Below, piece after piece: positions 21,696 through 37,639 of a stretch of DNA of 37,639 nucleotides (its first letter is position 1; every line of letters starts with the position of its first letter). The position numbers and the translations under genes are program-made. This DNA comes from a virus (lineage: Duplodnaviria; Heunggongvirae; Uroviricota; Caudoviricetes), in the IMG/VR virus record IMGVR_UViG_2585427795_000009, positions 1-37,639 of that record. The stretch is one strand, 5' to 3'. Below the pieces are notes generated by a model. That model was given only the letters and a program-made list of their open reading frames with translations. It had not been told where the DNA came from and searched no databases.

Positions 21696-23468
21696 ATGAC
21701 CATCACCACAGACACCACTCTTTTACACGACCCGCGTCGTCAGGCGGCGCTGCTGTACTGGCAGGGGTTTTCCGTGCCGCAGATTGCCGCCATGTTGCAG
21801 ATGAAACGCCCGACGGTGCAGAGCTGGAAACAGCGCGACGGCTGGGACAGCGTTGCCCCCATCAGCCGTGTCGAAATGAGTCTGGAAGCGCGGCTGACCC
21901 AGCTCATCATCAAACCGCAGAAAACCGGCGGTGACTTCAAGGAAATTGACCTGCTCGGACGCCAGATTGAACGACTGGCACGGGTCAACCGTTACAGTCA
22001 GACCGGCAACGAGGCAGACCTTAATCCGAACGTCGCTAACCGCAACAAAGGCGGGCGTCGCAAACCGAAAAAGAATTTTTTCAGTGACGAGGCCATCGAA
22101 AAGCTGGAGCAGATTTTCTTTGAGCAGTCTTTCGAATATCAGTTGCACTGGTATCGCGCCGGGCTTGAGCACCGCATCCGCGATATCCTGAAATCCCGCC
22201 AGATTGGCGCGACGTTTTATTTTTCCCGCGAGGCGCTGCTGCGCGCCCTGAAAACCGGTCATAACCAGATTTTTCTGTCGGCCAGTAAAACGCAGGCGTA
22301 TGTGTTCCGCGAATACATCATCGCCTTTGCCCGGCTGGTTGACGTTGACCTGACCGGTGACCCGATTGTCCTGGGCAATAACGGCGCAAAACTGATTTTT
22401 CTCGGCACCAACTCCAACACCGCGCAGAGCCATAACGGCGACCTGTACGTCGATGAGATTTTCTGGATCCCGAATTTTCAGGTACTGCGTAAGGTGGCAT
22501 CAGGTATGGCCTCACAGAGTCACCTGCGCTCGACCTATTTCTCCACCCCGTCCACGCTGGCGCACGACGCCTACCCGTTCTGGTCGGGTGAACTGTTCAA
22601 CCGGGGACGCGCCAGCGCCGCCGAACGTGTGGAAATCGACGTCAGTCATAACGCCCTTGCCGGTGGTCTTCTCTGTGCGGACGGCCAGTGGCGGCAGATT
22701 GTCACCATTGAGGACGCGCTGAAAGGCGGCTGCACGCTGTTCGACATTGAACAGCTCAAACGCGAAAACAGCGCCGATGATTTTAAAAATCTGTTCATGT
22801 GTGAATTTGTTGACGACAAGGCGTCGGTGTTCCCGTTCGAGGAGCTGCAACGCTGCATGGTCGACACGCTGGAAGAATGGGAAGACTATGCCCCCTTTGC
22901 TGCCAATCCGTTCGGCTCCCGTCCGGTATGGATTGGTTACGACCCGTCACACCGTGGCGACAGCGCCGGATGCGTGGTGCTGGCACCGCCGGTGGTGGCC
23001 GGTGGCAAATTCAGAATACTTGAGCGTCATCAGTGGAAAGGCATGGACTTTGCCACTCAGGCTGAATCCATCCGCAAACTCACCGAAAAATACAACGTCG
23101 AATACATCGGAATTGATGCCACCGGCCTCGGTGTCGGCGTGTTCCAGCTCGTGCGCTCGTTCTATCCCGCCGCGCGCGACATCCGCTACACGCCGGAAAT
23201 GAAAACCGCAATGGTGCTCAAGGCCAAAGACGTTATCCGCCGTGGCTGTCTGGAATATGACGTCAGCGCCACCGACATCACCAGCTCGTTTATGGCTATC
23301 CGCAAGACCATGACCAGCAGCGGACGCAGCGCCACCTATGAGGCCAGCCGCAGCGAGGAAGCCAGCCACGCCGACCTCGCCTGGGCGACCATGCACGCCC
23401 TGTTAAATGAGCCACTCACCGCCGGTATCAGCACCCCGCTGACATCCACCATTCTGGAGTTTTACTGA
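21696..23468 (+). CDS. P: Terminase large (ATPase) subunit gpP
   Basis: 590 aa from ATG 21696 (MTITTDTTLLHDPRRQ...); divergent from O; stop overlaps Q start (TGATG). Confidence 0.9.
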   Translation: MTITTDTTLLHDPRRQAALLYWQGFSVPQIAAMLQMKRPTVQSWKQRDGWDSVAPISRVEMSLEARLTQLIIKPQKTGGDFKEIDLLGRQIERLARVNRYSQTGNEADLNPNVANRNKGGRRKPKKNFFSDEAIEKLEQIFFEQSFEYQLHWYRAGLEHRIRDILKSRQIGATFYFSREALLRALKTGHNQIFLSASKTQAYVFREYIIAFARLVDVDLTGDPIVLGNNGAKLIFLGTNSNTAQSHNGDLYVDEIFWIPNFQVLRKVASGMASQSHLRSTYFSTPSTLAHDAYPFWSGELFNRGRASAAERVEIDVSHNALAGGLLCADGQWRQIVTIEDALKGGCTLFDIEQLKRENSADDFKNLFMCEFVDDKASVFPFEELQRCMVDTLEEWEDYAPFAANPFGSRPVWIGYDPSHRGDSAGCVVLAPPVVAGGKFRILERHQWKGMDFATQAESIRKLTEKYNVEYIGIDATGLGVGVFQLVRSFYPAARDIRYTPEMKTAMVLKAKDVIRRGCLEYDVSATDITSSFMAIRKTMTSSGRSATYEASRSEEASHADLAWATMHALLNEPLTAGISTPLTSTILEFY

Positions 23469-24487
23469 TGAGCAAGAAAAAAGGGAAAACACCGCGACCT
23501 GCGGCAAAAACAATCACCGCCAGCGCCCCGAAAATGGAAGCATTCACCTTTGGCGAGCCGGTGCCGGTACTCGACCGCCGTGACATTCTGGATTACGTTG
23601 AGTGCATCAGTAACGGCAGATGGTATGAGCCACCGGTCAGCTTTACCGGTCTGGCAAAAAGCCTGCGTGCTGCCGTGCATCACAGCTCCCCGATTTACGT
23701 CAAACGCAATATTCTGGCCTCGACATTTATCCCGCATCCGTGGCTTTCCCAGCAGGATTTCAGCCGCTTTGTGCTGGATTTTCTGGTGTTCGGTAATGCG
23801 TTTCTGGAAAAGCGTTACAGCACCACCGGTAAGGTCATCAGACTGGAAACCTCACCGGCAAAATATCCCCGCCGTGGCGTGGAAGAGGATGTTTACTGGT
23901 GGGTGCCGTCCTTCCATGAGCCGACACCTTTCGCGCCCGGCTCCGTGTTTCACCTGCTGGAGCCGGATATTAATCAGGAGCTGTACGGTCTGCCGGAATA
24001 TCTCAGCGCCCTTAACTCTGCCTGGCTGAATGAATCAGCCACGCTGTTCCGCCGCAAGTATTACGAAAACGGCGCTCATGCCGGATACATCATGTATGTC
24101 ACCGATGCCGTGCAGGATCGCAACGATATCGAAATGCTTCGCGAAAACATGGTTAAGTCGAAAGGCCGCAACAACTTTAAAAACCTGTTTCTCTATGCCC
24201 CACAGGGGAAAGCCGACGGCATTAAAATTATCCCCCTCAGTGAAGTGGCGACGAAGGACGATTTTTTTAATATCAAAAAAGTCAGCGCCGCAGATCTCCT
24301 GGACGCACACCGCATCCCCTTTCAGTTGATGGGCGGTAAGCCGGAGAATGTCGGGTCACTAGGAGATATTGAGAAAGTGGCAAAGGTCTTTGTCCGCAAT
24401 GAACTCATTCCATTACAGGAGAGAATAAAGTCAATAAATGAATGGTTAGATATGGAAGTCATAAAATTCCTTGATTATAACTTATAA
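23468..24487 (+). CDS. Q: Portal protein gpQ
   Basis: 339 aa, synteny P-Q next to the cos region; last 25 or so codons are AT-rich. Confidence 0.88.
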   Translation: MSKKKGKTPRPAAKTITASAPKMEAFTFGEPVPVLDRRDILDYVECISNGRWYEPPVSFTGLAKSLRAAVHHSSPIYVKRNILASTFIPHPWLSQQDFSRFVLDFLVFGNAFLEKRYSTTGKVIRLETSPAKYPRRGVEEDVYWWVPSFHEPTPFAPGSVFHLLEPDINQELYGLPEYLSALNSAWLNESATLFRRKYYENGAHAGYIMYVTDAVQDRNDIEMLRENMVKSKGRNNFKNLFLYAPQGKADGIKIIPLSEVATKDDFFNIKKVSAADLLDAHRIPFQLMGGKPENVGSLGDIEKVAKVFVRNELIPLQERIKSINEWLDMEVIKFLDYNL

Positions 24488-24729
24488 GTAAATATATAAA
24501 GTTGGCGGAATGCAATCCCGCCAACTTAACTATATATGCGTATTTTCATGAAAGGAGATCACTCAATAACTTCCATCGAGATCGGGTAATAACATTTGAA
24601 CAGATCGCTGAATAACATCGATGGAGATCACTTTTGACTCATTTTGTTATTCAGTGATCTCCATCAATGTTATTGGAACTTCACAGGTGTGTTGATCTGT
24701 ATCTTTTGCCATTCCGGTAAAGGATACCT

Positions 24730-26271
24730 ATGCCAACAGTTCCAATTTCTATGAGAAAACTTAAAGAAATTCTTAGGCTTAAATACGGTGTTGGACTCAG
24801 CCATCGACAAATTGGTCGTAGTCTTGCAATCTCCCCTTCCGTTGTATCCAGATATGCTAATCGGGCGGCTCAACTTGGCATAAAGCAGTGGCCCTTACCT
24901 ACAGGATGGGATGATACAAAACTAAAACATGCGTTCCTTCAGACCCAGGTTAAGATGAAGAAGCACTCTCTGCCTGACTGGGCTACAGTACACCGGGAAC
25001 TGCGTAATAAATGCGTGACGCTGCAGCTACTCTGGGAAGAATACTGTGAGCGTAATCCAGGCGGTTTTTACAGCTATAACCATTACTGCCGGATGTACCG
25101 TGAATGGCTCAAAACCACTTCACCATCAATGCGTCAGGTACATAAAGCTGGCGAAAAACTTTTCGTTGATTACTGTGGACCTACCGTTGGCGTTACCGAC
25201 CCTGAGACCGGAGAAATAAGAACTGCTCAGGTCATCGTAGCTGTTCTCGGGGCATCAAGTTACACATGGGCAGAGGCCACCTGGTCTCAGCAGCTTGAAG
25301 ACTGGGTGATGAGTCATGTTCGCTGCTTCCAGTGGTTGGGTGGCGTTCCTGAACTTGTTGTTCCGGACAATCTGAAAAGCGCCACATCCAGGGCATGTAA
25401 GTATGATCCTGACGTTAACCCTACCTACCAGCAGATGCTTGAGCATTATAATGTCGCAGTTTTGCCTGCGCGGCCACGTAAACCGAAAGATAAAGCCAAA
25501 GCTGAAGTTGGCGTTCAGGTTGTTGAACGCTGGATCATGGCCCGAATCAGGCATGAGATCTTCTACAGCCTTGCATCGCTTAATCAGCGCATTCGGGAGT
25601 TGCTGGAAAGACTGAATAACAAAATAATGCAGAAGTTGGGTTATTCACGTGCAGAACTCTTCATCCAGCTTGATAAACCCGCACTGAAGCCTCTTCCTGA
25701 AGCCAGTTACAGTTACACCCTGGTGAAGAAAGTCAGAGTTCATGCCGATTACCACGTGGAAATCGACAAACATTACTACTCGGTTCCATGTTCGCTGTTA
25801 GGCCAGCAACTGGAAGCATGGATCTCCGGAGAACTGGTAAGACTCTTCAATCAGGGGCAGGAGGTTGCTGTGCACCCGCGCAAGCGTACTTATGGCTACA
25901 GTACCCGCAACGAGCACATGCCTGAAGCTCATCGACAGCATGCCACCTGGACGCCAGAGCGTCTTCTGGAATGGGCGGGGCACATAGGCAGTGAAACTCA
26001 TAGTTATGTGCTTCATATACTGAACTCTCGTCCACATCCGGAACAAAGCTATCGCTTCTGCCTTGGACTCCTGAACCTTCATAAAAAATACAGTAAAGCC
26101 AGACTTAATGCAGCATGTGCAAGAGCTCTGAAAACAAAGGTATGGCGTCTGTCAGGTATTAAATCGATCCTGGAAAAAGGTCTGGATAAACAACCTGTTC
26201 AGGATCCAAAACCAGATCTGTTATCCACGATGGAACACGAAAACGTACGCGGCAGTGAGTATTACCACTGA
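24730..26271 (+). CDS. istA: IS21-family transposase IstA
   Basis: 513 aa; N-terminal HTH (LSHRQIGRSLAISPSVVSRY), DDE-type core, SD AAAGGA upstream. Confidence 0.9.
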   Translation: MPTVPISMRKLKEILRLKYGVGLSHRQIGRSLAISPSVVSRYANRAAQLGIKQWPLPTGWDDTKLKHAFLQTQVKMKKHSLPDWATVHRELRNKCVTLQLLWEEYCERNPGGFYSYNHYCRMYREWLKTTSPSMRQVHKAGEKLFVDYCGPTVGVTDPETGEIRTAQVIVAVLGASSYTWAEATWSQQLEDWVMSHVRCFQWLGGVPELVVPDNLKSATSRACKYDPDVNPTYQQMLEHYNVAVLPARPRKPKDKAKAEVGVQVVERWIMARIRHEIFYSLASLNQRIRELLERLNNKIMQKLGYSRAELFIQLDKPALKPLPEASYSYTLVKKVRVHADYHVEIDKHYYSVPCSLLGQQLEAWISGELVRLFNQGQEVAVHPRKRTYGYSTRNEHMPEAHRQHATWTPERLLEWAGHIGSETHSYVLHILNSRPHPEQSYRFCLGLLNLHKKYSKARLNAACARALKTKVWRLSGIKSILEKGLDKQPVQDPKPDLLSTMEHENVRGSEYYH

Positions 26272-26282
26272 TACGGGATCCA

Positions 26283-27032
26283 ATGATGAATCATCTTTAC
26301 GAACAACTGACCGCACTTAAACTCACCGGCTTCCGTGATGCGCTTAAAAAGCAACTTGCTCAGCCGGGCACATACCAGGAGCTGGGCTTCGAAGAACGCC
26401 TGTCATTACTGACAGCAGAAGAACTAACCTGCCGTGAAAACAGGAAGGCAGAGCGTCTGATCAAACATGCACGGTTCAGACTTAATGCTGAGTTATCAAA
26501 GCTGGATTATCGTAACAATAGAGGGCTGGACAGGGCCCTCATCCGTTCACTCAGTCAGGGAAACTGGTTAACCCTGAAACAAAATATTTTACTGACCGGG
26601 GCCACCGGCAGCGGTAAAACGTTCCTGGCATGTGCACTTGGTCATAATGCCTGCCGACAGGGATACAAGGTCTACTATTATCGCCTTAAAGCGCTGATGG
26701 AACAGTGCTATCAGGGGCATGCTGATGGAAGATACAGCAAACTTTTGACCAGGCTGAATAATAGCGATCTGCTGCTTCTGGATGACTGGGGGCTGGAACC
26801 TCTCTCATCAGAACAGCGTAGCGACCTGCTGGAAATAGTGGATCTGATGTACCAACGAGGCTCAATCATCGTAGTGAGCCAGTTGCCGGTGGAAAACTGG
26901 TACAAAATGATCGGAGACTCCACACATGCGGATGCCATCCTAGATCGACTGGTTCATGGCAGTATCAAGATCGAACTTAAAGGAGAATCAATGCGGAAAA
27001 TACAATCTCCGTTGACCGAAGGAGATCAGTGA
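26283..27032 (+). CDS. istB: IS21-family ATP-binding helper IstB
   Basis: 249 aa; Walker A (LLTGATGSGKTF) and Walker B (LLLLDDWG); AAA+ IstB pattern. Confidence 0.9.
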   Translation: MMNHLYEQLTALKLTGFRDALKKQLAQPGTYQELGFEERLSLLTAEELTCRENRKAERLIKHARFRLNAELSKLDYRNNRGLDRALIRSLSQGNWLTLKQNILLTGATGSGKTFLACALGHNACRQGYKVYYYRLKALMEQCYQGHADGRYSKLLTRLNNSDLLLLDDWGLEPLSSEQRSDLLEIVDLMYQRGSIIVVSQLPVENWYKMIGDSTHADAILDRLVHGSIKIELKGESMRKIQSPLTEGDQ

Positions 27033-27118
27033 AGGTAATTTAAAAACGGTTCTGTGAAAGTGACACGAACCGATCTCCATCGATGTTACTCACCGATCTC
27101 CTTCACGGTAATACGCAA

Positions 27119-27826
27119 CTATATATACTTCCTTTTTACTCTACTTAATTCTATCACTGATGAGGAGTGACAAAATGACAAATTAATAGTATCGATATAA
27201 TCCAAAATTTGACTCTCAACCTCAATAAAAATATTTTTGGGCCCATTACTAATCGATATACCGATTTCATCCAAAACAGCCATCATTTTTCTCTGATGAG
27301 TTTTATATTTATAGTCTTTATTTTCCTCTGTAATATGTGCATTGGCTTCCTCAATAACACATTTGATTCTAGATATTATTTCTAGATAATCTCTCGAAAC
27401 AGATATATCACCGCCTTGCGCTTCAGGGAACATAACCCTATACCATCTAAAAAAATTAACTTTCTCTGGATAGATGCTACTTCTTTTAGTTAACTCAGCA
27501 CTTGCAAATTCTCTAAACATCGTCAGATGACTAGTGTAATTACTATTATTATTATTTTTAACTCCAGCGTTATATGTCATCAAAGCAATCATAACACCAA
27601 AAACGGTAACAAAAGTTGTTATAAGCCATCCAAACGCCTGAAAATACATTACTATACCAGATGTTTTTTCCGCAAAAAATTTTAAGCACTGGCTATCGAA
27701 GCATATATCACGCTCATATAGCTTTTCATTCTGAATAGTTTCAAAAAGAGAAATTAGCGAAAAAATCAAAAAAAGAGCTGACGACACACCGACAATATAT
27801 TTGAGAAGTCTAATATTTGCATTCAT
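27119..27826 (-). CDS. 2-TM membrane protein, candidate effector translationally coupled to the upstream reverse transcriptase
   Basis: 235 aa; two N-terminal TM helices (LLKYIVGVSSALFLIFSLISLF and GIVMYFQAFGWLITTFVTVFGVMIALM) then a roughly 150-aa soluble domain; its ATG overlaps the RT stop (ATGA); AT-rich. Confidence 0.7.
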   Translation of the reverse strand: MNANIRLLKYIVGVSSALFLIFSLISLFETIQNEKLYERDICFDSQCLKFFAEKTSGIVMYFQAFGWLITTFVTVFGVMIALMTYNAGVKNNNNSNYTSHLTMFREFASAELTKRSSIYPEKVNFFRWYRVMFPEAQGGDISVSRDYLEIISRIKCVIEEANAHITEENKDYKYKTHQRKMMAVLDEIGISISNGPKNIFIEVESQILDYIDTINLSFCHSSSVIELSRVKRKYI

Positions 27827-29049
27827 AATGGTTTTAAAGATGCCAATCTAGATTTAAAACACTCCAGTTTTTCTTTAAATGATTCAGAGCGAGTAAGAAT
27901 AATCATCTTATATCTCGTCAAATCATATTTTCTTTTATACCAATGTTTATTTTGATTACCTTTCGAATACGACAACTCTAAACTTTTTATAGCTGCATCA
28001 ATCACAGCAACATCTCTTTTAGATGGCATCGGTTTTATTGCCTGCAACTGTTTCTTGAATGATTCATATTTTTCATGCCCAACACGGCCAAGCTTATTCA
28101 CTCTCCCCATACATCTATTGAATTCTTTTCTGTATGCAACACTTGTTTTTGTGTTATTTTTTGCCGCCAGTAATTTCAAATTATGTATAGATGCCCTGAT
28201 TCTTTTGACTTCATCGGATGGTAGTCGAGGTGAGTCATAGTCAACTCTTAAACCATGTACTTTTATAGGTTCAGATGAACAGTGAAATATTTTAGTTTTG
28301 TGCTTATTTATCGGCAAGTCATGCTCAGAAAGCATCCTCTCTATATGGCTTTGCATTTGAGAAAAATCATAATTACTTATTTTAGATGACACGGTAATAT
28401 CATCTACCAAACGCGTATAAACAAGTCCTTTCCTCTGCGCACGTCTTACCACATCCCCTTCAACAGCGAATAAACACAAAGTTGCTATATAGCTTGATGT
28501 TAAGGCCCCCTGTACGACAAAATCATCCTTAGTACATATATCCACCAAGTATTCAAGAGCCTCATCCTTAATATGCAATATCTCCTCAAACACGCTCCTA
28601 ACCAGATCTCTATGGATATTATCGAAAAAATTACTTATATCCACCTTGAGAACTGTTTTTGCTCCACAATGAGCCTTTGCACATGAAACATAGTCACGTT
28701 TGACATTAGAATTTAAAACATCATTTTTACTGGGAACTGAACCAAACAAAAATGAAGGAAAAACAACCAATTCCTTAAAGATACGTTTATTAATTCTACT
28801 CTGTAATAATCTCATTTTAGGATGCAGGGAGTAGACAATCCGTTTGCTTCCGTCAATTTTGGGAATTTCTTTTAGAGTATATTTCTCATCTAATGGTAAT
28901 TCTGCAATAGCTTTAAGCTCTTCAACAGAAATCGATAAAGCCTTTGACAACTTTTCAAGTGTTGTGATAGGAGCATTGGATTTGCTGTATGGTTTAAATT
29001 TATCCATAAACATACCATTCAAATTCAAAGTTACGTACGGTCTTCCCAT
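27823..29049 (-). CDS. Retron-type reverse transcriptase (start uncertain: ATG at 29049, 29013 or 29007)
   Basis: RT motifs read directly: KRIVYSLHPKMRLLQSRI (motif 1-2), CAKAH-x5-VLKVDISNFFDNI (NAxxH-like plus motif A), QGALTSSYIATL (motif B), YTRLVDDITVS (motif C, YxDD), LPINKHKTKIF (motif E), IKVHGL in the position of the retron VTG motif; about 130-aa C-terminal extension. Confidence 0.82.
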   Translation of the reverse strand: MGRPYVTLNLNGMFMDKFKPYSKSNAPITTLEKLSKALSISVEELKAIAELPLDEKYTLKEIPKIDGSKRIVYSLHPKMRLLQSRINKRIFKELVVFPSFLFGSVPSKNDVLNSNVKRDYVSCAKAHCGAKTVLKVDISNFFDNIHRDLVRSVFEEILHIKDEALEYLVDICTKDDFVVQGALTSSYIATLCLFAVEGDVVRRAQRKGLVYTRLVDDITVSSKISNYDFSQMQSHIERMLSEHDLPINKHKTKIFHCSSEPIKVHGLRVDYDSPRLPSDEVKRIRASIHNLKLLAAKNNTKTSVAYRKEFNRCMGRVNKLGRVGHEKYESFKKQLQAIKPMPSKRDVAVIDAAIKSLELSYSKGNQNKHWYKRKYDLTRYKMIILTRSESFKEKLECFKSRLASLKPL

Positions 29050-29265
29050 ACTCAAGGGTGGAACAGCAGAGATGCTTACATCAACAATTGTCAGCAACAG
29101 CCTCTGCTATCTTTCGACCGTACGTAATGTCGTCGGCTACGGCACCATCGTAGTTGACGACGGTGGGGCCTCGCTGATAGGTCCATAGTGGACGCTTTTT
29201 TGTAAAAGCAAAAACTGACAATTTAATGTTGTTGACTGCCGCATACCAAGCGAATCGCTGGTGCG
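29050..29265 (-). ncRNA. Candidate structured leader or ncRNA upstream of the retron-type RT (possible msr-msd-like element)
   Basis: Non-coding leader with several perfect hairpins (GTCCA-TAG-TGGAC 29181..29193; GCTTTT-N4-AAAAGC 29194..29209; CACCATCG-N7-CGACGGTG 29143..29165) and two interleaved long-range inverted repeats (29031..29040 with 29118..29127, 10 bp; 29081..29094 with 29215..29236). Sequence-only inference. Confidence 0.3.
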
Positions 29266-29271
29266 CTAAGA

Positions 29272-29300
29272 ATAATGCAACAAAAAAATAAGAATTTCAA
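29272..29300 (-). promoter_or_regulatory. Putative sigma-70 promoter for the RT/2-TM operon
   Basis: On the minus strand: TTGAAA (-35), 17-nt spacer, CATTAT (-10); about 215-250 nt upstream of the RT start. Confidence 0.3.
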
Positions 29301-29338
29301 CCGGGTAACTGCAAGCCAGCGACATCGTTTAGCGCGCA

Positions 29339-29357
29339 GTGCTTTCCCCGCCTCGCC
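29339..29357. other. cos site (19-nt cohesive-end sequence of P2/P4 type)
   Basis: Minus-strand sequence GGCGAGGCGGGGAAAGCAC matches the P2 cohesive end as I recall it; flanked at 29357..29380 by hairpin CCGCCC-N8-GGGCGG plus TTTT. Confidence 0.75.
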
Positions 29358-29546
29358 CGCCCGCTTAATGGGGCGGTTTTAATGCACTTGCATTATGTCC
29401 CGCTCCTCAGTGCTGCGCTCCATCCTGATTACAAAAACCGTTATCAAAAACACATGCAAATAGACGCAGTCAAATGCACTACCGCCTCTCGCAATACCTT
29501 CAATTTCATGATAAAAAACATCATCCCTAACAAGAGCATTATCCTC

Positions 29547-31094
29547 ATGAAAAAAGTATATGAACTAACCAGTGAAGAAGCACTGTCATATTTTCTTCGC
29601 CATGACTCCTACACAACCTTAGAATTACCGGCTTATATTAATTTCACCACATTATTAAATGATATTAATTCATCTATCCATAACAAAAAAATTAAAATTG
29701 AACCAACCGCCAAGGAGCTGATGGGTAAAGATATCAATTATGAGGTGCTTGTCAGTAAAGATGGTCTATATAGCTGGCGTAGGATAACACTTATCAATCC
29801 CCTTTATTATGTCTACTTCTGTAGAAAAATCACAGCACCAACAACCTGGGAAATCATAACAGAAAAATTCAAATCTTTTGAATCAAACGACCTTTTTACA
29901 TGTTCAAGCATCCCCGTCAGAAAAGACAACTCGTCAAACATTGCTGCGTCTGTAATGAATTGGTGGGAAGATTTTGAACAAAAAAGCCTTGCCCTTGCTC
30001 TTGAATACGAATTCATGTTCAGCACTGACATCTCAAACTTCTACCCATCAATATATACTCATAGTTTTGAATGGGTATTCATATCAAAAGAAGATGCAAA
30101 GAAGAAAAAAAACAAAAATAACCCAGGGGGATTAATTGACAGCCACATTCAAATGATGATGAACAACCAGACAAATGGTATTCCACTCGGCAGCACATTG
30201 ATGGATACATTTGCTGAGCTTATCTTGGGTCAAATCGATATAGAATTAAGAAAAAAAACTAACGAACTCAAAATAATAAACTACAAGGTAGTACGCTACC
30301 GTGATGATTACCGGATCTTCTCTAATAGCAAAGATGATTTAGACATAATATCAAAATGTTTAGTCAATGTGTTGGGCGATTTTGGTTTAGATCTAAACTC
30401 AAAAAAAACTGAACTATATGAAGACATCATACTTCATTCGTTGAAACAAGCCAAAAAAGACTACATCAAAGAAAAAAGACATAAGTCACTCCAGAAAATG
30501 CTCTATTCAATATATTTATTTTCACTTAAACATCCAAACTCGAAAACAACCGTTAGATATCTAAATGATTTTCTTAGGGATTTATTTAAGCGAAAGTCAA
30601 TTAAAGATAACGGCCAACAGGTTGATGCTATGCTTGGTATTATTTCAAGCATCATGGCAAAAAACCCTACAACGTACCCAGTAGGAACGGCAATTTTCTC
30701 AAAACTCCTCAGTTTTCTTTATGGTGATGACACCCAAAAAAAATTAACAAAACTAGAACAGCTCCATAAAAAACTGGATAAACAACCCAATACAGAAATG
30801 CTTGACATATGGTTTCAGCGAACTCAAGCAAAAATAAACCTAGAGTGGAATAAATCTTATAAGTCAGCTCTATGCGTCCGTATAAATGATGAACTCACAA
30901 AAGAGAAAACATTTTCTGTAAATAATTTATGGAATATTGACTGGATCCAAGGAAAAGAAACGAGCCCCAATAAAGCCAAGATATTATCCTTGCTAAGAAA
31001 AACAAAAATCGTTGACACAGATAAATTTGATAAAATGGATGACAATATAACACCTGAAGAAGTTAATCTATTCTTTAAAGAGCACAGCAATTAA
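29547..31094 (+). CDS. AbiK/Abi-P2-like (UG/Abi class) reverse transcriptase in the old/tin position (start uncertain; longest ATG is at 29382)
   Basis: Motifs STDISNFYPSIYTHS (compare AbiK LDLSNFYHTLYTHS), GIPLGSTLMDTFAELIL (motif B), VVRYRDDYRIF (motif C), GLDLNSKKTEL (motif E), then a roughly 250-aa helical C-terminal domain; AT-rich; the 29382..29546 extension overlaps the cos-flanking region and is probably not coding. Confidence 0.8.
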   Translation: MKKVYELTSEEALSYFLRHDSYTTLELPAYINFTTLLNDINSSIHNKKIKIEPTAKELMGKDINYEVLVSKDGLYSWRRITLINPLYYVYFCRKITAPTTWEIITEKFKSFESNDLFTCSSIPVRKDNSSNIAASVMNWWEDFEQKSLALALEYEFMFSTDISNFYPSIYTHSFEWVFISKEDAKKKKNKNNPGGLIDSHIQMMMNNQTNGIPLGSTLMDTFAELILGQIDIELRKKTNELKIINYKVVRYRDDYRIFSNSKDDLDIISKCLVNVLGDFGLDLNSKKTELYEDIILHSLKQAKKDYIKEKRHKSLQKMLYSIYLFSLKHPNSKTTVRYLNDFLRDLFKRKSIKDNGQQVDAMLGIISSIMAKNPTTYPVGTAIFSKLLSFLYGDDTQKKLTKLEQLHKKLDKQPNTEMLDIWFQRTQAKINLEWNKSYKSALCVRINDELTKEKTFSVNNLWNIDWIQGKETSPNKAKILSLLRKTKIVDTDKFDKMDDNITPEEVNLFFKEHSN

Positions 31095-31100
31095 TATCCC

Positions 31101-31134
31101 AAAGCCATGTTAGTAACATAACATGGCTTTTTTT
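31101..31134. terminator. Bidirectional rho-independent terminator between the convergent Abi-like RT and A
   Basis: Perfect 12-bp stem (AAAGCCATGTTA / TAACATGGCTTT) with 6-nt loop, followed by TTTT on the plus strand. Confidence 0.6.
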
Positions 31135-31198
31135 AAATCACTCATTATCAGTTATCAAGAACGAACATAACATTCTATTCCGAGGAGTTAAATTATCA

Positions 31199-33484
31199 TT
31201 AGCTCCACTTAATATCCGTTATATCCTCCAGCCACTCCTCATCTACAAGATAGGTGAATTTTTTCCCGTCATAATTTACGGTTGCTCCACGTGCCAGCGC
31301 CTCAAGCTCCCATCGCTGCGGCCTGATACCGTTCTGAGCGAGGTCAACGCGGATACGGGTAATTTGCATTCGTTCTGACCGGGTCAGTCTGGCCGATGGC
31401 GCTATTTCATGTGGTTTTAACGGGCTTCCGTTTCTCTGCTGACGACCAGTCGTTCTCAGGCCGTGTTTTAATGCTCCCCTGAGCGCCTTCACGACCTCCG
31501 GGTCATTCCATTCGATAACACCGTCATCAACCAGATTAAGCACTGCTGCGGCGTGCTCAGAAGGTGTGGGAGCTGGTAACGAAGCATCACCACTGGTGAG
31601 CTTTCCACAGTTATTGACAGGACTCCGAGGCGCGGCGATGCCGCTTTTTAAAGTCAAAGGCTCAACGACCGGAACTTTCGGCACAATGCGCCAGTCCGTC
31701 GTTCTGGTGATATGAATATGACGCGCGCCGAGATGCGGCGCGTAAATGCCGACCACTCTCTCGACTTCTTCCTCGTATTCGTTGACGTCATCCGACGGAC
31801 TACGGGCAACCCTGACAATCTGACTATCGCGCGGGACATTTGCCCCGCCCTGCGCGCTGATATACAGCGCAAAATCACCACTGTCTGCGGCGGCGCGTGC
31901 AGCCTCGACGCGCTCGTCAAACTCATCAGCAATGCTGACGCCGCGCGGCAATTTGCGTAGTTCACGGTAAGCCCCCATTGTCGGCAGACCAACCGTTTTA
32001 AATTGCGGGATGCGCCACGTTGACGCCCATGCGGTAACAGCCGCGGCAGTGTCTTTCAGCGGTCTGCCGGTATCATTATCGAGCTGACCATCCAGTGCAT
32101 ATCCGTCGATATTTTTTGAGATGTACTTCGCGATATACCCCGCAGCACCGCCCCGGTTAAGGTGTTTCGCCTGAAAACGGTTTCGCGCGGCTCCTCTTTC
32201 GTCGCCATCCTCTTTGAGCGCGTAGCGACGCATGATTTCAATAATCTGGTTACGCTGGCGTGGATTACAAAAAAGCATCATATGCCAGTGCGGCGTTCCG
32301 TCGTGGTGTGGCTCGACGACACGCAAACCGTAGACCTGTAAATCATTATCCTTGAATGCCGTGCGCATCAGGCTCCAGATGCGGCAGAGATAACGCTGCG
32401 CATCCTTTGGATTAAATGCCTCATCGTTCCAGCCGTGATTAAGCTGAACGGTTTTACTTTCGCCTTTTCTGACCTGACGAGTCGGGTGATACTTTGACGG
32501 CGCAGTCAGCGTGATAAACATCCCCACATCACCCTCTGCGGCGGCGTAACGCTCAATACCGGCAATGGTGTTCATCAGCTCCATCCGGCGAATTTCAGGA
32601 TTAGAAATACTGCCCATCACCTTACTGATAAGGTCGATGCGCTCGCCGGTTTCCCTGTTTTCAAGGTCACACGATTTAAGAAATTCCAGATTTGCCTGGC
32701 GGCGCGCACGCACATCACGAATGGCGTGTTTACTGGCATAAGGAGAACGGTCTTTATTGACCTCCCCGACAGCTATCAGTAACGCTTCATGCCAGCGCAT
32801 ACGCTGGCCTTTAAGCTGATGAGTCCACCACTCATCGTTAAACAGACGGGCAATGGCAGAATATGCCTGCCTCGTGGTTATCTGTCCTTTACGGTATTTT
32901 TTCCAGTAGAGCGGGGAAATATTGAAAGCTCGTGCAGCGCCAGCAACATGACCATACAGGTGAGCCTGAGCCTCATCCGTAAACAGTGATTCTTTTTCGC
33001 CATGCGCATCCACCCAGGCATCGCTGAGTTCCTCATACATCATGAAAAGCTGCGATGAGATACGGGCAGCAAACTTTTTCAGCTCCTTGTCATTCATTCC
33101 CGGCAGGCGCGCATAGTGGTCACGCTCTGCCAGAAACAGCAACGACGCGTCGGTGTTCATTTCATGGCGCTGATTCACACGCTCAATGCGCGGCCATAAA
33201 CGACGCTGAAAAGTGGATGTGAGGAAATAAAACCCGTGTACCGGGCTTTTATTGCGCCGGATGTAGTCATAGCGTGAAGTAAACAGCGAGCGCAAAAAGT
33301 AAGGCAGGCGGTTAATCGTGGATAAAACACCTTGCACCTGACGCATCTCGTCACGTGTAAGGGGTCTTTCGCGCCCGACGGCCTCGCGTGGCGCGTTCCA
33401 TGCATAAGCACCGGTAAACGTCTCACCGGTGCCTGCGGCAAATGCTGACGGAGGGACAAAATGCACGGAGGCTTTAACGGCCAT
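31199..33484 (-). CDS. A: Replication initiation protein gpA (rolling-circle nickase)
   Basis: 761 aa from ATG 33484 (MAVKASVHFVPP...); the ORF track start at 33526 is a TTG extension; size and synteny match P2 A. Confidence 0.9.
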   Translation of the reverse strand: MAVKASVHFVPPSAFAAGTGETFTGAYAWNAPREAVGRERPLTRDEMRQVQGVLSTINRLPYFLRSLFTSRYDYIRRNKSPVHGFYFLTSTFQRRLWPRIERVNQRHEMNTDASLLFLAERDHYARLPGMNDKELKKFAARISSQLFMMYEELSDAWVDAHGEKESLFTDEAQAHLYGHVAGAARAFNISPLYWKKYRKGQITTRQAYSAIARLFNDEWWTHQLKGQRMRWHEALLIAVGEVNKDRSPYASKHAIRDVRARRQANLEFLKSCDLENRETGERIDLISKVMGSISNPEIRRMELMNTIAGIERYAAAEGDVGMFITLTAPSKYHPTRQVRKGESKTVQLNHGWNDEAFNPKDAQRYLCRIWSLMRTAFKDNDLQVYGLRVVEPHHDGTPHWHMMLFCNPRQRNQIIEIMRRYALKEDGDERGAARNRFQAKHLNRGGAAGYIAKYISKNIDGYALDGQLDNDTGRPLKDTAAAVTAWASTWRIPQFKTVGLPTMGAYRELRKLPRGVSIADEFDERVEAARAAADSGDFALYISAQGGANVPRDSQIVRVARSPSDDVNEYEEEVERVVGIYAPHLGARHIHITRTTDWRIVPKVPVVEPLTLKSGIAAPRSPVNNCGKLTSGDASLPAPTPSEHAAAVLNLVDDGVIEWNDPEVVKALRGALKHGLRTTGRQQRNGSPLKPHEIAPSARLTRSERMQITRIRVDLAQNGIRPQRWELEALARGATVNYDGKKFTYLVDEEWLEDITDIKWS

Positions 33485-33749
33485 ATGAGCCAAAAGCCTC
33501 TGAACAACGCTTGCTGAGTTGCTCAACCTGCGCGTTTAAATCAGCAAAAGACTTTGCGCTTCCGGTCAGAATATCGTGATGCATCAGGCCGGAAACGAGC
33601 TGGCTTAATTTCGGGTAATAACCAACCACCGCCAGCCACTCCTGACCGGCGTTTTTACCGCTTTCCGCTCTCTTTTTCTCGTGGAGAATAAACTGAAAGC
33701 TGTCACTGGTAACGACATAACGTTCGCCAATTTCGATACGAATACTCAT
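33474..33749 (-). CDS. P2 orf83-position hypothetical protein
   Basis: 91 aa, synteny between B and A. Confidence 0.65.
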   Translation of the reverse strand: MSIRIEIGERYVVTSDSFQFILHEKKRAESGKNAGQEWLAVVGYYPKLSQLVSGLMHHDILTGSAKSFADLNAQVEQLSKRCSEAFGSYGR

Positions 33750-33970
33750 GCCATTCTCCGGTAATGCTTGTTTTTTGCTTCAAAGACTGACTGGCAGGAA
33801 ACACAACGCGTGGCTGACGGATAAGCCGCACGACGGGCAGCAGGTATTGGCGCATCACACTCTTCGCAAACCAGCGCAGAAGTACCGCAATGTTTTACCC
33901 TTGCCGCGTTAATCTGGCGCTCCAGTAATTCAGCCTGTTGTTCCTGAATAAAATCCACGTTGTCCGGCAT
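33746..33970 (-). CDS. P2 orf82-position DksA/TraR-type C4 zinc-finger protein
   Basis: 74 aa with CGTSALVCEEC...RCVSCQ four-cysteine zinc finger. Confidence 0.7.
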   Translation of the reverse strand: MPDNVDFIQEQQAELLERQINAARVKHCGTSALVCEECDAPIPAARRAAYPSATRCVSCQSVFEAKNKHYRRMA

Positions 33971-34272
33971 TACCAGCTCCTTTTATCGTTCAGTTTCTTA
34001 AATTCATCAGCGCAATAGCTGGCGATTTCTGTCGTTAATTTTGTCAGTTCATCCACGGAGGAAATTTGCTTGTGAAATACAGCGCGTTTAACAAGTAAAT
34101 TGACCACATCAGACAGGAGGTTTAATTCGTTCTGATAAATCGCGATAACAGACTCAGTTATTTCGCGTTTTTCTTTATCAATACCAAGTTGAATAAGAGA
34201 CAAATCGCCATTTTTCATAACGGCGATTTTTAAGGCGTTATTCAGTAATACAATTGAACGAGAACAGGACAT
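33970..34272 (-). CDS. P2 orf81-position hypothetical protein
   Basis: 100 aa from ATG 34272; the ORF track start is TTG one codon upstream; stop/start overlap with the next gene. Confidence 0.6.
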   Translation of the reverse strand: MSCSRSIVLLNNALKIAVMKNGDLSLIQLGIDKEKREITESVIAIYQNELNLLSDVVNLLVKRAVFHKQISSVDELTKLTTEIASYCADEFKKLNDKRSW

Positions 34273-34496
34273 CAAAGCACCTCCCCGCGAGACAATCCGA
34301 TATTGTGAAATTTTTCCGACTCCTGACTGAGCAGCTCGACTATCTCCACGCGGGATAACTCCGTCTTTGTGATGTGGCGAATCATGGCATCAAGATGAGA
34401 CGAAAAGCGCGTTGCTGCATCGGCCTGTGCTTCGGTTCTGGCCTGTTGCAGCAGTAATGCGTATTTACCGCACTGATTTTCAGAAACTGTATGCAT
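34272..34496 (-). CDS. P2 orf80-position hypothetical protein
   Basis: 74 aa, synteny. Confidence 0.6.
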
Positions 34497-34559
34497 GACT
34501 TTCTCCAGGCAAAAAGAAGCCCCGCACGATTAAGTGCGTTAAAAACTCTGGTTAATTAT

Positions 34560-35066
34560 TTAATGCAGATATTGCTCTGGTTTTACCGACGTCAGAATTG
34601 TCGGTGCATACTCAAACAGGCTGAATAATTCACGTAATGCACGGAATAAAGCATCACGCCAGTAACATGATTCTTCATTAATTCGCCAGTATGGCTGGTT
34701 GAATTCTTTTTCAGTCAATCCGGCATGCATAAATAAAGTACGACGCTGACTGACTGTTAAAAAACTAATATATGCATACTCACTTGCGCCAACCTGACGG
34801 CGTTTTGAGAATGCCCCACGCAATTCATCAATTGCACAAACCAGCCGTTCACGTTCGACGTCGTTCATTTCTTCAAAACGCATCGTTGCGTGACGTTGTT
34901 TTAACTGCGCATGAAAGCAAACTGTTAGCCGTTCGCGCTCCATCATCTGATTATAATAATCACATGTATCCTGCCAGCGAGGAACGGCAAGATGCTTACC
35001 AATTATCCGGCGCATAGCTGCTGGCTGTTTTTCAACGAGATTGAGCGTCATCACTGTCATTTCCAT
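34560..35066 (-). CDS. B: Replication protein gpB (helicase loader)
   Basis: 168 aa, synteny cox-orf78-B. Confidence 0.8.
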   Translation of the reverse strand: MEMTVMTLNLVEKQPAAMRRIIGKHLAVPRWQDTCDYYNQMMERERLTVCFHAQLKQRHATMRFEEMNDVERERLVCAIDELRGAFSKRRQVGASEYAYISFLTVSQRRTLFMHAGLTEKEFNQPYWRINEESCYWRDALFRALRELFSLFEYAPTILTSVKPEQYLH

Positions 35067-35227
35067 ACCCTCCGGCTTTTCAGAAAGGTCAGAGCCTTTT
35101 TTAACGGACTCTGTTTTTTGGTGCGGATAATGATTCCCTTACGCCCCTTACCGTGGGTGATGGTGAAGTCAATCGCCCTGGGGCTTTCGTTACGCAGTAA
35201 CTGAGCAATACAACGAGGCTCATTCAT
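35057..35227 (-). CDS. P2 orf78-position small protein
   Basis: 56 aa from ATG 35227; the ORF track version starts at an upstream GTG. Confidence 0.5.
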   Translation of the reverse strand: MNEPRCIAQLLRNESPRAIDFTITHGKGRKGIIIRTKKQSPLKKALTFLKSRRVWK

Positions 35228-35237
35228 ACGGTTCTCC

Positions 35238-35513
35238 TTAACGTGGTTCACCGAGACCTAACCACATCAACCAGCCGTCACGAATCTCTTTAGGGCGGCT
35301 TTCATAAGCCAGTTTTAGTCCGTTATTCCATGCCGGAAGGTATACCCAATATTCACCTGCACGACCTGAAGCTGATTGTGGATCGGTCATATCAATTACA
35401 GGCAGCTTTCCTTTATCGATCATCCGACGAACCGCTCCTGTCGATTTTCCTATTAGTTTTGCGAACTCCTGATAAGGAATCGCATCAGTCATGAGTGTTA
35501 CTTGCTTGCTCAT
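35238..35513 (-). CDS. cox: Cox excisionase / early repressor
   Basis: 91 aa, MSKQVTLMTDAIPYQEFAKLIGKSTGAVRRMIDKGKLPV HTH; divergent from C. Confidence 0.88.
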   Translation of the reverse strand: MSKQVTLMTDAIPYQEFAKLIGKSTGAVRRMIDKGKLPVIDMTDPQSASGRAGEYWVYLPAWNNGLKLAYESRPKEIRDGWLMWLGLGEPR

Positions 35514-35627
35514 GTCGTCCTCTAGCCCTCATGAATTGCGTTTAATGTCTTATAATGCCTTTTAGTGCCCACATCCAAGCACTAAACAATCTACATCTAA
35601 ACTAAATACTATTGAGATCTAAACACC
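35514..35627. promoter_or_regulatory. Immunity switch region with divergent promoters (Pe for cox, Pc for C) and candidate operator repeats
   Basis: Minus strand: TTGGAT, 17-nt spacer, TTATAA upstream of cox; direct repeats ATCTAAAC at 35595..35602 and 35616..35623 upstream of C. Confidence 0.4.
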
Positions 35628-35927
35628 ATGTCAAACACGATAAGCGAGAAGATAGTCTTAATGCGAAAATCAGAGTATTTGAGCAGACAACAACTTGCTG
35701 ATTTAACAGGGGTTCCGTATGGCACGCTGAGTTACTATGAAAGTGGTCGTTCAACACCTCCAACAGATGTCATGATGAACATCCTGCAGACCCCACAATT
35801 CACCAAATACACTTTATGGTTCATGACCAATCAGATCGCTCCTGAGTCCGGGCAAATTGCGCCCGCTCTCGCACACTTTGGGCAAAACGAAACAACGTCG
35901 CCCCACTCCGGTCAAAAGACTGGTTAA
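35628..35927 (+). CDS. C: Immunity repressor C
   Basis: 99 aa, MSNTISEKIVLMRKSEYLSRQQLADLTGVPYGTLSYYESG HTH; position next to int. Confidence 0.9.
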   Translation: MSNTISEKIVLMRKSEYLSRQQLADLTGVPYGTLSYYESGRSTPPTDVMMNILQTPQFTKYTLWFMTNQIAPESGQIAPALAHFGQNETTSPHSGQKTG

Positions 35928-36042
35928 CAATTCATCGTGAATATATTCATCACAAGTGCCTACTATTGGTGGCTAAATTTCAGCCACCACGAAAAAAGCG
36001 ATTAGTAGTCGCAAAAAAACACACCACTCGGAGGGTTTTCTG

Positions 36043-37056
36043 ATGGCAATCAAAAAACTCGATGATGGTCGATATGAAGTGGACATCCGCCCTACTGGAC
36101 GTAATGGAAAACGCATCCGTAGGAAGTTTGATAAGAAAAGCGAAGCTGTCGCTTTCGAGAAATACACGTTGTACAACCACCACAATAAAGAATGGCTATC
36201 AAAACCAACAGACAAGCGACGTCTGTCGGAGCTGACACAGATCTGGTGGGATTTAAAGGGTAAACACGAAGAGCATGGGAAATCTAATCTTGGAAAAATT
36301 GAAATCTTCACAAAAATAACGAATGACCCATGCGCATTTCAAATTACGAAATCGCTTATCAGCCAGTACTGCGCCACCCGAAGAAGTCAGGGTATTAAAC
36401 CTTCGAGTATCAATCGTGATTTAACATGTATTAGCGGCATGTTTACAGCCCTGATTGAAGCGGAGTTATTCTTTGGTGAGCACCCTATCAGAGGGACAAA
36501 AAGGCTTAAGGAGGAAAAACCAGACACAGGCTATCTCACGCAGGAAGAAATTGCCTTACTGCTTGCTGCTCTTGACGGCGACAACAAAAAGATTGCGATT
36601 CTTTGCCTGAGTACTGGAGCACGTTGGGGAGAAGCAGCTCGTTTGAAAGCAGAAAATATCATCCATAACCGCGTCACGTTTGTTAAAACGAAAACAAACA
36701 AACCACGCACCGTCCCGATCTCAGAGGCTGTTGCCAAAATGATCGCGGATAACAAACGAGGTTTTTTATTCCCTGATGCTGATTACCCTCGCTTCAGACG
36801 AACAATGAAAGCAATAAAACCGGATTTGCCAATGGGGCAAGCCACACATGCACTAAGGCACAGCTTTGCCACTCATTTCATGATTAATGGAGGAAGTATT
36901 ATCACACTACAACGGATACTAGGTCACACGCGGATTGAGCAAACTATGGTTTACGCTCATTTTGCGCCAGAGTACCTTCAGGACGCCATTTCTCTTAATC
37001 CGCTAAGAGGTGGTACTGAGGCCGAGAGTGTCCACATAGTGTCCACAGTAGAGTAA
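36043..37056 (+). CDS. int: Tyrosine integrase
   Basis: 337 aa; C-terminal catalytic signature HALRHSFATHFMINGGSIITLQRILGHTRIEQTMVYAHF (R..H-x-x-R...Y); adjacent to the att core. Confidence 0.9.
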   Translation: MAIKKLDDGRYEVDIRPTGRNGKRIRRKFDKKSEAVAFEKYTLYNHHNKEWLSKPTDKRRLSELTQIWWDLKGKHEEHGKSNLGKIEIFTKITNDPCAFQITKSLISQYCATRRSQGIKPSSINRDLTCISGMFTALIEAELFFGEHPIRGTKRLKEEKPDTGYLTQEEIALLLAALDGDNKKIAILCLSTGARWGEAARLKAENIIHNRVTFVKTKTNKPRTVPISEAVAKMIADNKRGFLFPDADYPRFRRTMKAIKPDLPMGQATHALRHSFATHFMINGGSIITLQRILGHTRIEQTMVYAHFAPEYLQDAISLNPLRGGTEAESVHIVSTVE

Positions 37057-37135
37057 CGTTTAAGGGCTTTCAGTGGTAATTTATGCCGCTCAAACCCGCA
37101 TTGTACCGTTGAAAGCCCCTACTGGTGACACTCTA

Positions 37136-37162
37136 AATCTCCCTTACACGGGCTTATTTTTT
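37136..37162. repeat. Prophage att core, right copy (int-proximal)
   Basis: Identical 27-mer to 1507..1533. Confidence 0.85.
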
Positions 37163-37321
37163 TATGCATAAGCCCTATCTCTGGTAACCGTCTTCCATTG
37201 ACCACATCGATAGAATCCTCCTTCATAGCACGATGCCTTTCACTTATCGGCATCGTGCTCCCACAGGTTCCGGCTACGCACAGCCAGAACGCGCATATTT
37301 GACGCTTACCAAAAAATATTC

Positions 37322-37639
37322 TCACTCTCCACATTTGAATGTCAGACGAGCGACACCATGTAATCCTACACCTTCTGTCTTCAGCTCAACTATTTGCATT
37401 TTTTTGCCCTGAGTAACACAGAAATGAGTTGCATCATTTTTTACTATATTTTCTGCACCAGATATTCTACCCCTGGCTAAAGAAGCTTCGGCTTCGGTGT
37501 AGTATTGGTTATCGAGTTTACGCTGAATATTACTTTTATATGCAAGACCAAATTTACCGATACTTGTCTCATCATTATGCACAGCACAACCAGACATAAT
37601 AAAAATACTAATTAATGATATAGCAGCTATCTTTTTCAT
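37322..37639 (-). CDS. yegR: Host lipoprotein YegR
   Basis: 105 aa with lipoprotein signal MKKIAAISLISIFIMSGC; flanks the prophage opposite yegQ/cyaR, as at the E. coli K-12 ogrK remnant locus. Confidence 0.75.
   Translation of the reverse strand: MKKIAAISLISIFIMSGCAVHNDETSIGKFGLAYKSNIQRKLDNQYYTEAEASLARGRISGAENIVKNDATHFCVTQGKKMQIVELKTEGVGLHGVARLTFKCGE

Follow-up and report, generated by a model that had tools for sequence, protein, structure and literature searches.

An IMG/VR virus record of 37,639 nucleotides (IMGVR_UViG_2585427795_000009; the whole of this stretch is called the window below) contains a P2-like prophage into which the insertion sequence (IS) ISEc12 has very probably transposed. 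The element lies in a spacer of about 42 bp between the portal gene Q and the convergently oriented effector gene of a type IV retron, within the cos-proximal defence hotspot of the prophage. It occupies 24537-27117 on the plus strand, a length of 2581 bp that was obtained by reading the sequence and from computed coordinates, and it has the termini TG...CA, beginning with TGCGTATT and ending with AATACGCA. A perfect 8-bp target-site duplication, ACTATATA, adjoins it on both sides. A sequence-only reading of the window had placed the insertion at 24529-27125, which is the IS together with both copies of the duplication, and had described a clean simple insertion of an IS21-family element of 2581 bp with istA and istB. 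Its account of the size, the two genes, the terminal inverted repeats (TIRs) and the duplication stands on re-inspection, and so does its view of the event as a clean simple insertion.

That this is a simple insertion of ISEc12, far beyond what chance could bring about, is evident from the empty site. A query was made by joining 600 bp of the left flank to 600 bp of the right flank, with one copy of ACTATATA retained, and was searched in complete E. coli genomes. The joined flanks are contiguous in 56 of these, at 99% identity or more and with full coverage; because they match a one-piece site with a single ACTATATA, the insertion is simple. In E. coli UPEC-245U (NZ_CP049845.1) the match is 1200/1200 in one piece. 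A BLAST comparison of the whole window with the same genome gives two blocks, 1-24537 and 27117-37639, and the sole break between them is at the IS. The blocks overlap by 10 bases in NZ_CP049845.1, which are the 8-bp duplication plus a shared T and a shared A, one ambiguous base on each side. The comparison with IS-free relatives that the sequence-only reading had recommended is provided by this UPEC-245U twin, which lacks the IS and in which the two flanks adjoin. IMGVR_UViG_2585427787_000003 has the left junction of the occupied site too, and matches the window with 100% identity over 24487-27082; the insertion therefore does not stem from an error in one assembly.

Both the ends and the genes of the element are those of the IS21 family. 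IS21 prototypes are roughly 2.1 kb in length, and ISEc12 is longer. The family is defined by TG...CA ends and by TIRs composed of several repeated units, L1/L2 and R1/R2 (PMC10122671). Here the 8 outermost bases of the two ends all agree, as do about 37 of the first 50, and motifs of the GGAGATC type occur three times near each end; these six are two-thirds of the nine occurrences in the window, against 3.07 expected window-wide. The DDE transposase encoded by istA matches the IS21 transposase model NF033546 at 1.3e-92 (310.5 bits; cutoff 160) and equals RefSeq WP_001298859.1 in length. After a gap of 14 nt, in the two-gene order of IS21, istB follows. Its product, an AAA+ helper ATPase, matches PF01695 (IstB_IS21) at 2.2e-67 (227.5 bits) and NF038214 at 1.8e-80 (270 bits; cutoff 200), and RefSeq istB (WP_001016257.1) has the same length of 747 nt. 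Both open reading frames (ORFs) are intact, and their matches to the family's hidden Markov models, beyond the cutoffs, bear out the assignment of IstA and IstB to IS21.

ISEc12 resembles IS21 and IS5376 in having istA, for a DDE transposase, ahead of istB, for an AAA+ helper, in its TIRs of repeated units and in the lack of a target consensus; it also appears to be like them in carrying an outward -35-like hexamer at the right end and a -10-like hexamer at the left end. It differs in its duplications, which are of 5-8 bp at ISEc12 sites, whereas IS5376 makes uniform 5-bp duplications in vitro (PMC10122671). In tandem copies of IS21, the -35 box of the right TIR and the -10 box of the left TIR together form a strong promoter (PMC10122671). 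As read from the sequence, TTCACG is located 10 nt from the right end of the present element and TATTTT 4 nt from the left end, and the two would be 17 nt apart across a hypothetical 3-bp tandem junction; the window holds a single copy.

The element is ISEc12: over its full 2581 bp it has 100% identity with many copies that RefSeq/PGAP names "IS21-like element ISEc12 family"; it is these annotated copies, and not the ISfinder reference entry, on which the identification is based. A copy covering at least 80% of the element is found in 1366 of 5426 complete E. coli genomes, and a genome with any match has a median of 3 matching places. That ISEc12 is active in transposition is suggested by its intact ORFs, by the perfect duplication and by the many dispersed copies to which it is identical. 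A full ISEc12 is present in only 4 of 50,697 phage records, all of the PhiR12 series. These four deposited phages (52-54 kb; recorded host K-12 MG1655 or E. coli C) carry a 100% identical copy in the tail-fibre/assembly region, as at 48143-50723 of Escherichia phage PhiR12_1 (PV340549.1), and ISEc12 is for that reason to be counted among the contents of deposited complete phage genomes. That ISEc12 can disrupt genes has been described before: in E. coli ST131 clade C it interrupts tssM and is flanked there by the duplication ACTGC (PMC10711316). That case and the present one are both single simple insertions with a short duplication, but in tssM the duplication is of 5 bp and the ORF is disrupted, whereas the present duplication is of 8 bp and no ORF is broken.

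The choice of target was surveyed at 19 distinct ISEc12 sites with both ends, drawn from IMG/VR, from E. coli loci and from the window. Duplications of 5 bp were found at 7 sites, of 6 bp at 2, of 7 bp at 6 and of 8 bp at the present site only; the most frequent lengths are thus 5 bp and 7 bp. In the other three copies a duplication is missing, presumably through rearrangement. Duplications in the IS21 family range from 4 to 8 bp. Among the 19 sites, which extend from GC-rich to AT-rich, there is no target-sequence consensus. IS5376 likewise has no strong target specificity (PMC10122671), and IstB picks targets by DNA deformation (PMC11208146); by analogy, the TA-step-rich ACTATATA would fit a structure-based choice of target by IstB. 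Nor does the placement of the IS right at the effector's stop call for a particular cause: only some 42 bp are open to an insertion that leaves both ORFs whole, and one on the effector side of the hairpin can hardly miss the stop.

ISEc12 has entered P2-like prophages elsewhere. It is found in the AbiP2 gene of such a prophage in PCP06022, with the duplication GTCTATA, in the portal gene in CREC8, EcPF20 and 22AR0010, and in the hotspot in GZEC065. These five share with the window the IS, the prophage family and a location near P-Q or in the hotspot; they differ in that the portal or AbiP2 gene is split or the IS sits elsewhere in the hotspot, and none is at the present site. The split gene of PCP06022 appears from its flanks to be a homologue of the AbiP2-type reverse transcriptase (RT) gene at 29382-31094 of the window. 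A common orientation of ISEc12 among the P2 matches was discarded as an artefact, the search joining only same-strand pieces.

The insertion looks recent. Within the att sites, the window and the UPEC-245U prophage differ by the IS and by two single-nucleotide polymorphisms (SNPs) in 33 kb, while the chromosomal flanks (1-1350 and 37163-37639) differ by about 2-4%, with 26 differences in 1.35 kb at yegQ and 20 in about 0.5 kb on the yegR side. Since the prophage is near-identical and the flanks are far more diverged, the same phage has recently come to reside in different chromosomal backgrounds, and the perfect duplication, with an IS identical to other copies, points to a hop that is more recent still. 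The SNP at 22928 is synonymous in P; that at 23867 changes threonine 134 of portal Q to proline (T134P) and is the only non-synonymous difference. Codon 134 specifies threonine in six compared relatives, and the 121-nt stretch around 23867 has no 100% match among 1860 portal places in complete E. coli genomes (best 99.2%). Three P2-like IMG/VR contigs that are more distant and lack this IS context (L071-L073) have the T134P allele. We considered T134P as a private or compensatory mutation tied to the larger genome and rejected this in favour of an ordinary polymorphism, the allele being found in those contigs.

For the gene that abuts the element, the insertion has left the coding sequence as it was. 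The effector stop, CTA on the plus strand at 27119-27121, lies within the right-hand copy of ACTATATA; beginning at 27117, the window has 100% identity with the IS-free twin over 8609 bp. The effector ORF is unchanged because this copy keeps its last codons and the TAG, and its 235 amino acids equal in number those of the twin's WP_000993280.1, in agreement with the sequence-only reading, which had the gene remain intact with a TAG from the duplication. The same reading had the gene lose its native 3' flank and the hairpin near Q, and this too is what is found. In the empty site the effector stop is followed by two bases and then by the native hairpin (24527-24499), the strongest terminator-like site of the region (-21.7 kcal/mol; z -6.1; none of 200 shuffled sequences folds as well); in the occupied site this terminator-like hairpin lies beyond the IS, on the Q side. 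As a sequence of events, IstA cut the target with a stagger of 8 bp and repair duplicated ACTATATA, leaving both flanking ORFs untouched and the retron terminator hairpin on the side of Q.

The IS brings with it a hairpin of its own, which the sequence-only reading had missed. It is located between the istB stop and the right TIR and is followed by UUUUU when read on the minus strand; on the plus strand there is no U-run after the hairpin. It reads as a terminator only for transcripts that enter from outside; for that of the retron it may stand in as terminator, and it may protect the IS against antisense transcription coming in. Retron transcripts would now probably run some 50-80 nt past the stop into the right end of the IS, to be halted by the IS-borne hairpin and its U-run, and with such a substitute retron expression is probably little changed. 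In the other direction, istA and istB are read towards the effector gene, whose 3' end they face, and the plus strand has no terminator-like site between the istB stop and the end of the IS; by this geometry, as the sequence-only reading had it, any read-out from the IS would be antisense to the effector.

The features of the region are collected in Table 1. The prophage that carries the IS occupies the cyaR / yegQ-yegR site and is recognized as P2-like by its gene order as annotated in the twin, an exact cos and a duplicated att core. The 27-bp P2 att core, AATCTCCCTTACACGGGCTTATTTTTT, is found at 1507-1533 and at 37136-37162, the second copy after the integrase; the CyaR small RNA gene (1445-1530; Rfam RF00112, 100.7 bits) has its 3' end within the left one. 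P, Q and the capsid protein are 99% identical to those of P2.

Table 1. Features of the IS insertion and of the surrounding prophage region (window coordinates)
Feature	Position	Strand	Remarks
Terminase P	ends 23468	+	
Portal gene Q	23468-24487	+	PF04860; "phage portal protein" in twin; stop 49 bp upstream of IS left end
Native intrinsic terminator hairpin of retron operon	24499-24527	-	13-bp stem, then UUUAUAUAUUU
Left target-site duplication copy, ACTATATA	24529-24536		8 bp; single copy in empty site of 56 E. coli genomes
ISEc12	24537-27117	+	between Q and retron
Left terminal inverted repeat region	24537-24680	+	repeated GGAGATC-type motifs, presumed IstA binding sites
istA, DDE transposase, 513 aa, intact	24730-26271	+	NF033546, PF00665 rve, PF22483 (Mu-transpos_C_2)
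istB, AAA+ helper ATPase, 248 aa, intact	26286-27032 (alternative start 26283)	+	PF01695, NF038214
IS-borne hairpin (27072-27047), then UUUUU	27042-27072	-	predicted by folding; between istB stop and right TIR
Right terminal inverted repeat region	27047-27117	+	repeated motifs; includes outward -35-like TTCACG 27102-27107
Right target-site duplication copy, ACTATATA	27118-27125		8 bp; holds effector TAG stop
Retron Ec48-family (type IV) two-transmembrane (2-TM) effector, 235 aa, intact	27119-27826	-	NF038235, PADLOC 2TM_IV
Retron type IV RT	27823-29007 (RefSeq start; longest ORF to 29097)	-	PADLOC RT_IV, PF00078; 1185 nt in twin
P2 cos 19-mer, GGCGAGGCGGGGAAAGCAC, exact	29339-29357	-	1 match, 0.01 expected
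AbiP2-type reverse transcriptase	29382-31094	+	PADLOC AbiP2
gpA	next gene after 31094	-	

What had been called simply an RT and a 2-TM effector can now be named. The effector matches NF038235 (retron_Ec48_2TM) at 2.3e-67 (226.7 bits; cutoff 65) and the PADLOC model 2TM_IV at 4.1e-85 (283 bits), and the RT matches PADLOC RT_IV at 7.6e-177 (586 bits); by these profile matches the pair is a type IV, Ec48-like retron (Ec48 / Retron-Eco6). Retrons of this type respond to RecBCD inhibitors of phages. The space 29008-29338 on the minus strand, between the RT start and cos, is probably that of the msr/msd RNA, and it has a promoter-like TTGAAA-17-CATTAT at 29300-29272. Rfam at gathering thresholds gives no match in or near the IS or the retron, this space included, and a1/a2 repeats were not searched for. 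The exact cos 19-mer is 2222 bp from the right end of the IS, in keeping with the earlier estimate of about 2.2 kb, and a GC-rich hairpin with a T-run (29357-29376, plus strand) adjoins it. The AbiP2-type RT scores 536 bits with PADLOC AbiP2 and is below the NCBIfam cutoffs for Drt4 and Drt3b. With gpA, AbiP2 RT, cos, type IV retron and gpQ in this order, the locus is the cos-proximal gpA-gpQ hotspot of P2-like phages, and its cargo is of the type reported there (Rousset et al. 2022, PMC9122126); the window differs in that an IS sits within the hotspot. The main text of the papers on the hotspot (PMC9122126, PMC13586616) makes no mention of transposases or insertion sequences.

Two further observations concern P2-like prophages at a distance from the IS. 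The tail-fibre gene of the window (11134-11604) contains internal repeats of about 132 bp that are 85-91% identical, seen as off-diagonal matches in the BLAST comparison with the twin prophage. In IMGVR_UViG_2585427728_000006, one of the three contigs with the T134P allele, a match to 1-2251 of the window is joined directly to one to 23614-24420, the 3' part of the portal gene; from this arrangement the contig appears to be a P2-like prophage that has lost about 21 kb of late genes.

Several points can be set against transposition of ISEc12 into this spacer as a near-neutral event. The exact occupied site is absent from the 5426 complete E. coli genomes, and the exact left junction is without a match in a one-genome-per-species collection or in metagenomes; in the former collection the IS left end alone has no match either. 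The right junction was not found in IMG/VR, where the sequence of the one contig with the left junction ends at window position 27082, 35 bp short of the IS end, and is uninformative on this point. The 8-bp duplication is the longest among the 19 surveyed ISEc12 sites, the others having 5-7 bp, and the near-neutrality is something that we infer from the sequence. No observation contradicts the structural account. IS elements are a frequent source of misjoins in draft assemblies, and an assembly artefact, or recombination between two IS copies in place of transposition, might be invoked; this is exceedingly unlikely, since the duplication is perfect, both flanks are adjacent in 56 other genomes, the left junction recurs in an independent IMG/VR record, and recombination between two copies would give non-matching flanks. 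As to how the site was chosen, ISEc12 might prefer terminator hairpins, stop codons or the P2 hotspot itself, instead of arriving there by chance and being kept by selection. At least 6 independent ISEc12 insertions, the window included, are in or near P-Q or the hotspot of P2-like prophages, where the genome-wide density of ISEc12 places leads to a rough expectation of about 1, and the duplications ACTATATA here and GTCTATA in PCP06022 are similar. That count, however, depends on the joining of pieces in the search and is not corrected for clonality; three of the other insertions break the portal gene at different codons, the 19 sites are without consensus, and with so small a gap any insertion that survives between hairpin and retron is bound to reach the stop. 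We regard such targeting as highly unlikely.

The insertion may also affect packaging of the phage. Between the att cores the prophage has grown through it from 33,040 bp to 35,629 bp, and the extra 2589 bp may lower packaging or prevent it altogether. A genome of 35.6 kb might fit poorly or not at all into the T=7 head of P2, in which case the IS would have turned an active prophage into a locked-in defence island, a form of prophage domestication; we consider this possible, though rather unlikely. Among the 60 of 92 close records listed (phages whose capsid protein has an identity of 98.6% or more), complete genomes are of 28.9-33.8 kb, and 35.6 kb exceeds any close relative among these matches. 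Packaging constraints have been cited for the rarity of transposable elements in phages (PMC13586616), and a full ISEc12 is present in only the four phage records named above. Yet the excess over the largest close relative among the matches listed is only about 5%, more distant P2-family phages, with different capsid proteins, reach 38-42 kb, and neither cos nor any P2 gene is damaged, the prophage being two SNPs away from its twin. A search of the literature for the packaging limit of P2 and for IS-carrying P2 mutants gave nothing usable. Regulation of the retron is another effect that may be imagined: antisense RNA from the right end of the IS, through istAB read-through or a hybrid promoter, would tune retron toxicity or defence. 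This fits the geometry of istAB described above and is possible but unsupported. In IS21 the right TIR contains a -35 box that faces outward (PMC10122671), the TTCACG of the right end would be 17 nt from TATTTT across a 3-bp tandem junction, and a candidate promoter formed by the right inverted repeat and the flank, TTCACG (27102-27107), a 16-nt spacer and TATACT (27124-27129), scores 9/12. Promoter-like matches of 9/12, however, occur in this AT-rich region at the rate of chance (13 found, 12.8 expected), and the promoter that a single IS21 has of its own is described as weak, while binding of IstA occludes the promoter elements of the TIR (PMC10122671). Antisense transcription from istAB or from the possible hybrid promoter would be expected to be weak, and that it serves as a regulator is improbable. 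A more elaborate form would have the rewiring go both ways, with antisense RNA, from the hybrid promoter or istAB read-out, lowering the toxic 2-TM effector relative to the RT in the lysogen and, after induction, read-through from the strong late transcript of P-Q driving istAB, which could be reached because the Q-side hairpin has no U-run on that strand; a burst of ISEc12 transposition would then be coupled to lytic growth, the IS riding in a 35.6-kb genome that is still packageable. We think this very improbable.

Most likely, transposition of ISEc12 into the Q-retron spacer was close to neutral, the IS having come to rest in a flexible, TA-rich stretch where it breaks nothing. A known IS, a known locus, a known neighbouring system and the known mechanism of IS21 make this an ordinary event of low novelty, and beyond annotation the finding has little weight. 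It does mark what looks like a very recent hop of ISEc12 into a pristine and recently mobile P2-like phage, and it adds one more case to the repeated entry of this IS into P2-like prophages. The window and the UPEC-245U prophage are a natural IS-plus/IS-minus pair, two SNPs apart, and such a pair could be used to gauge how much extra DNA the P2 head tolerates, how the loss of the native terminator or read-out from the IS affects an Ec48-type retron, and whether phages ferry IS elements.

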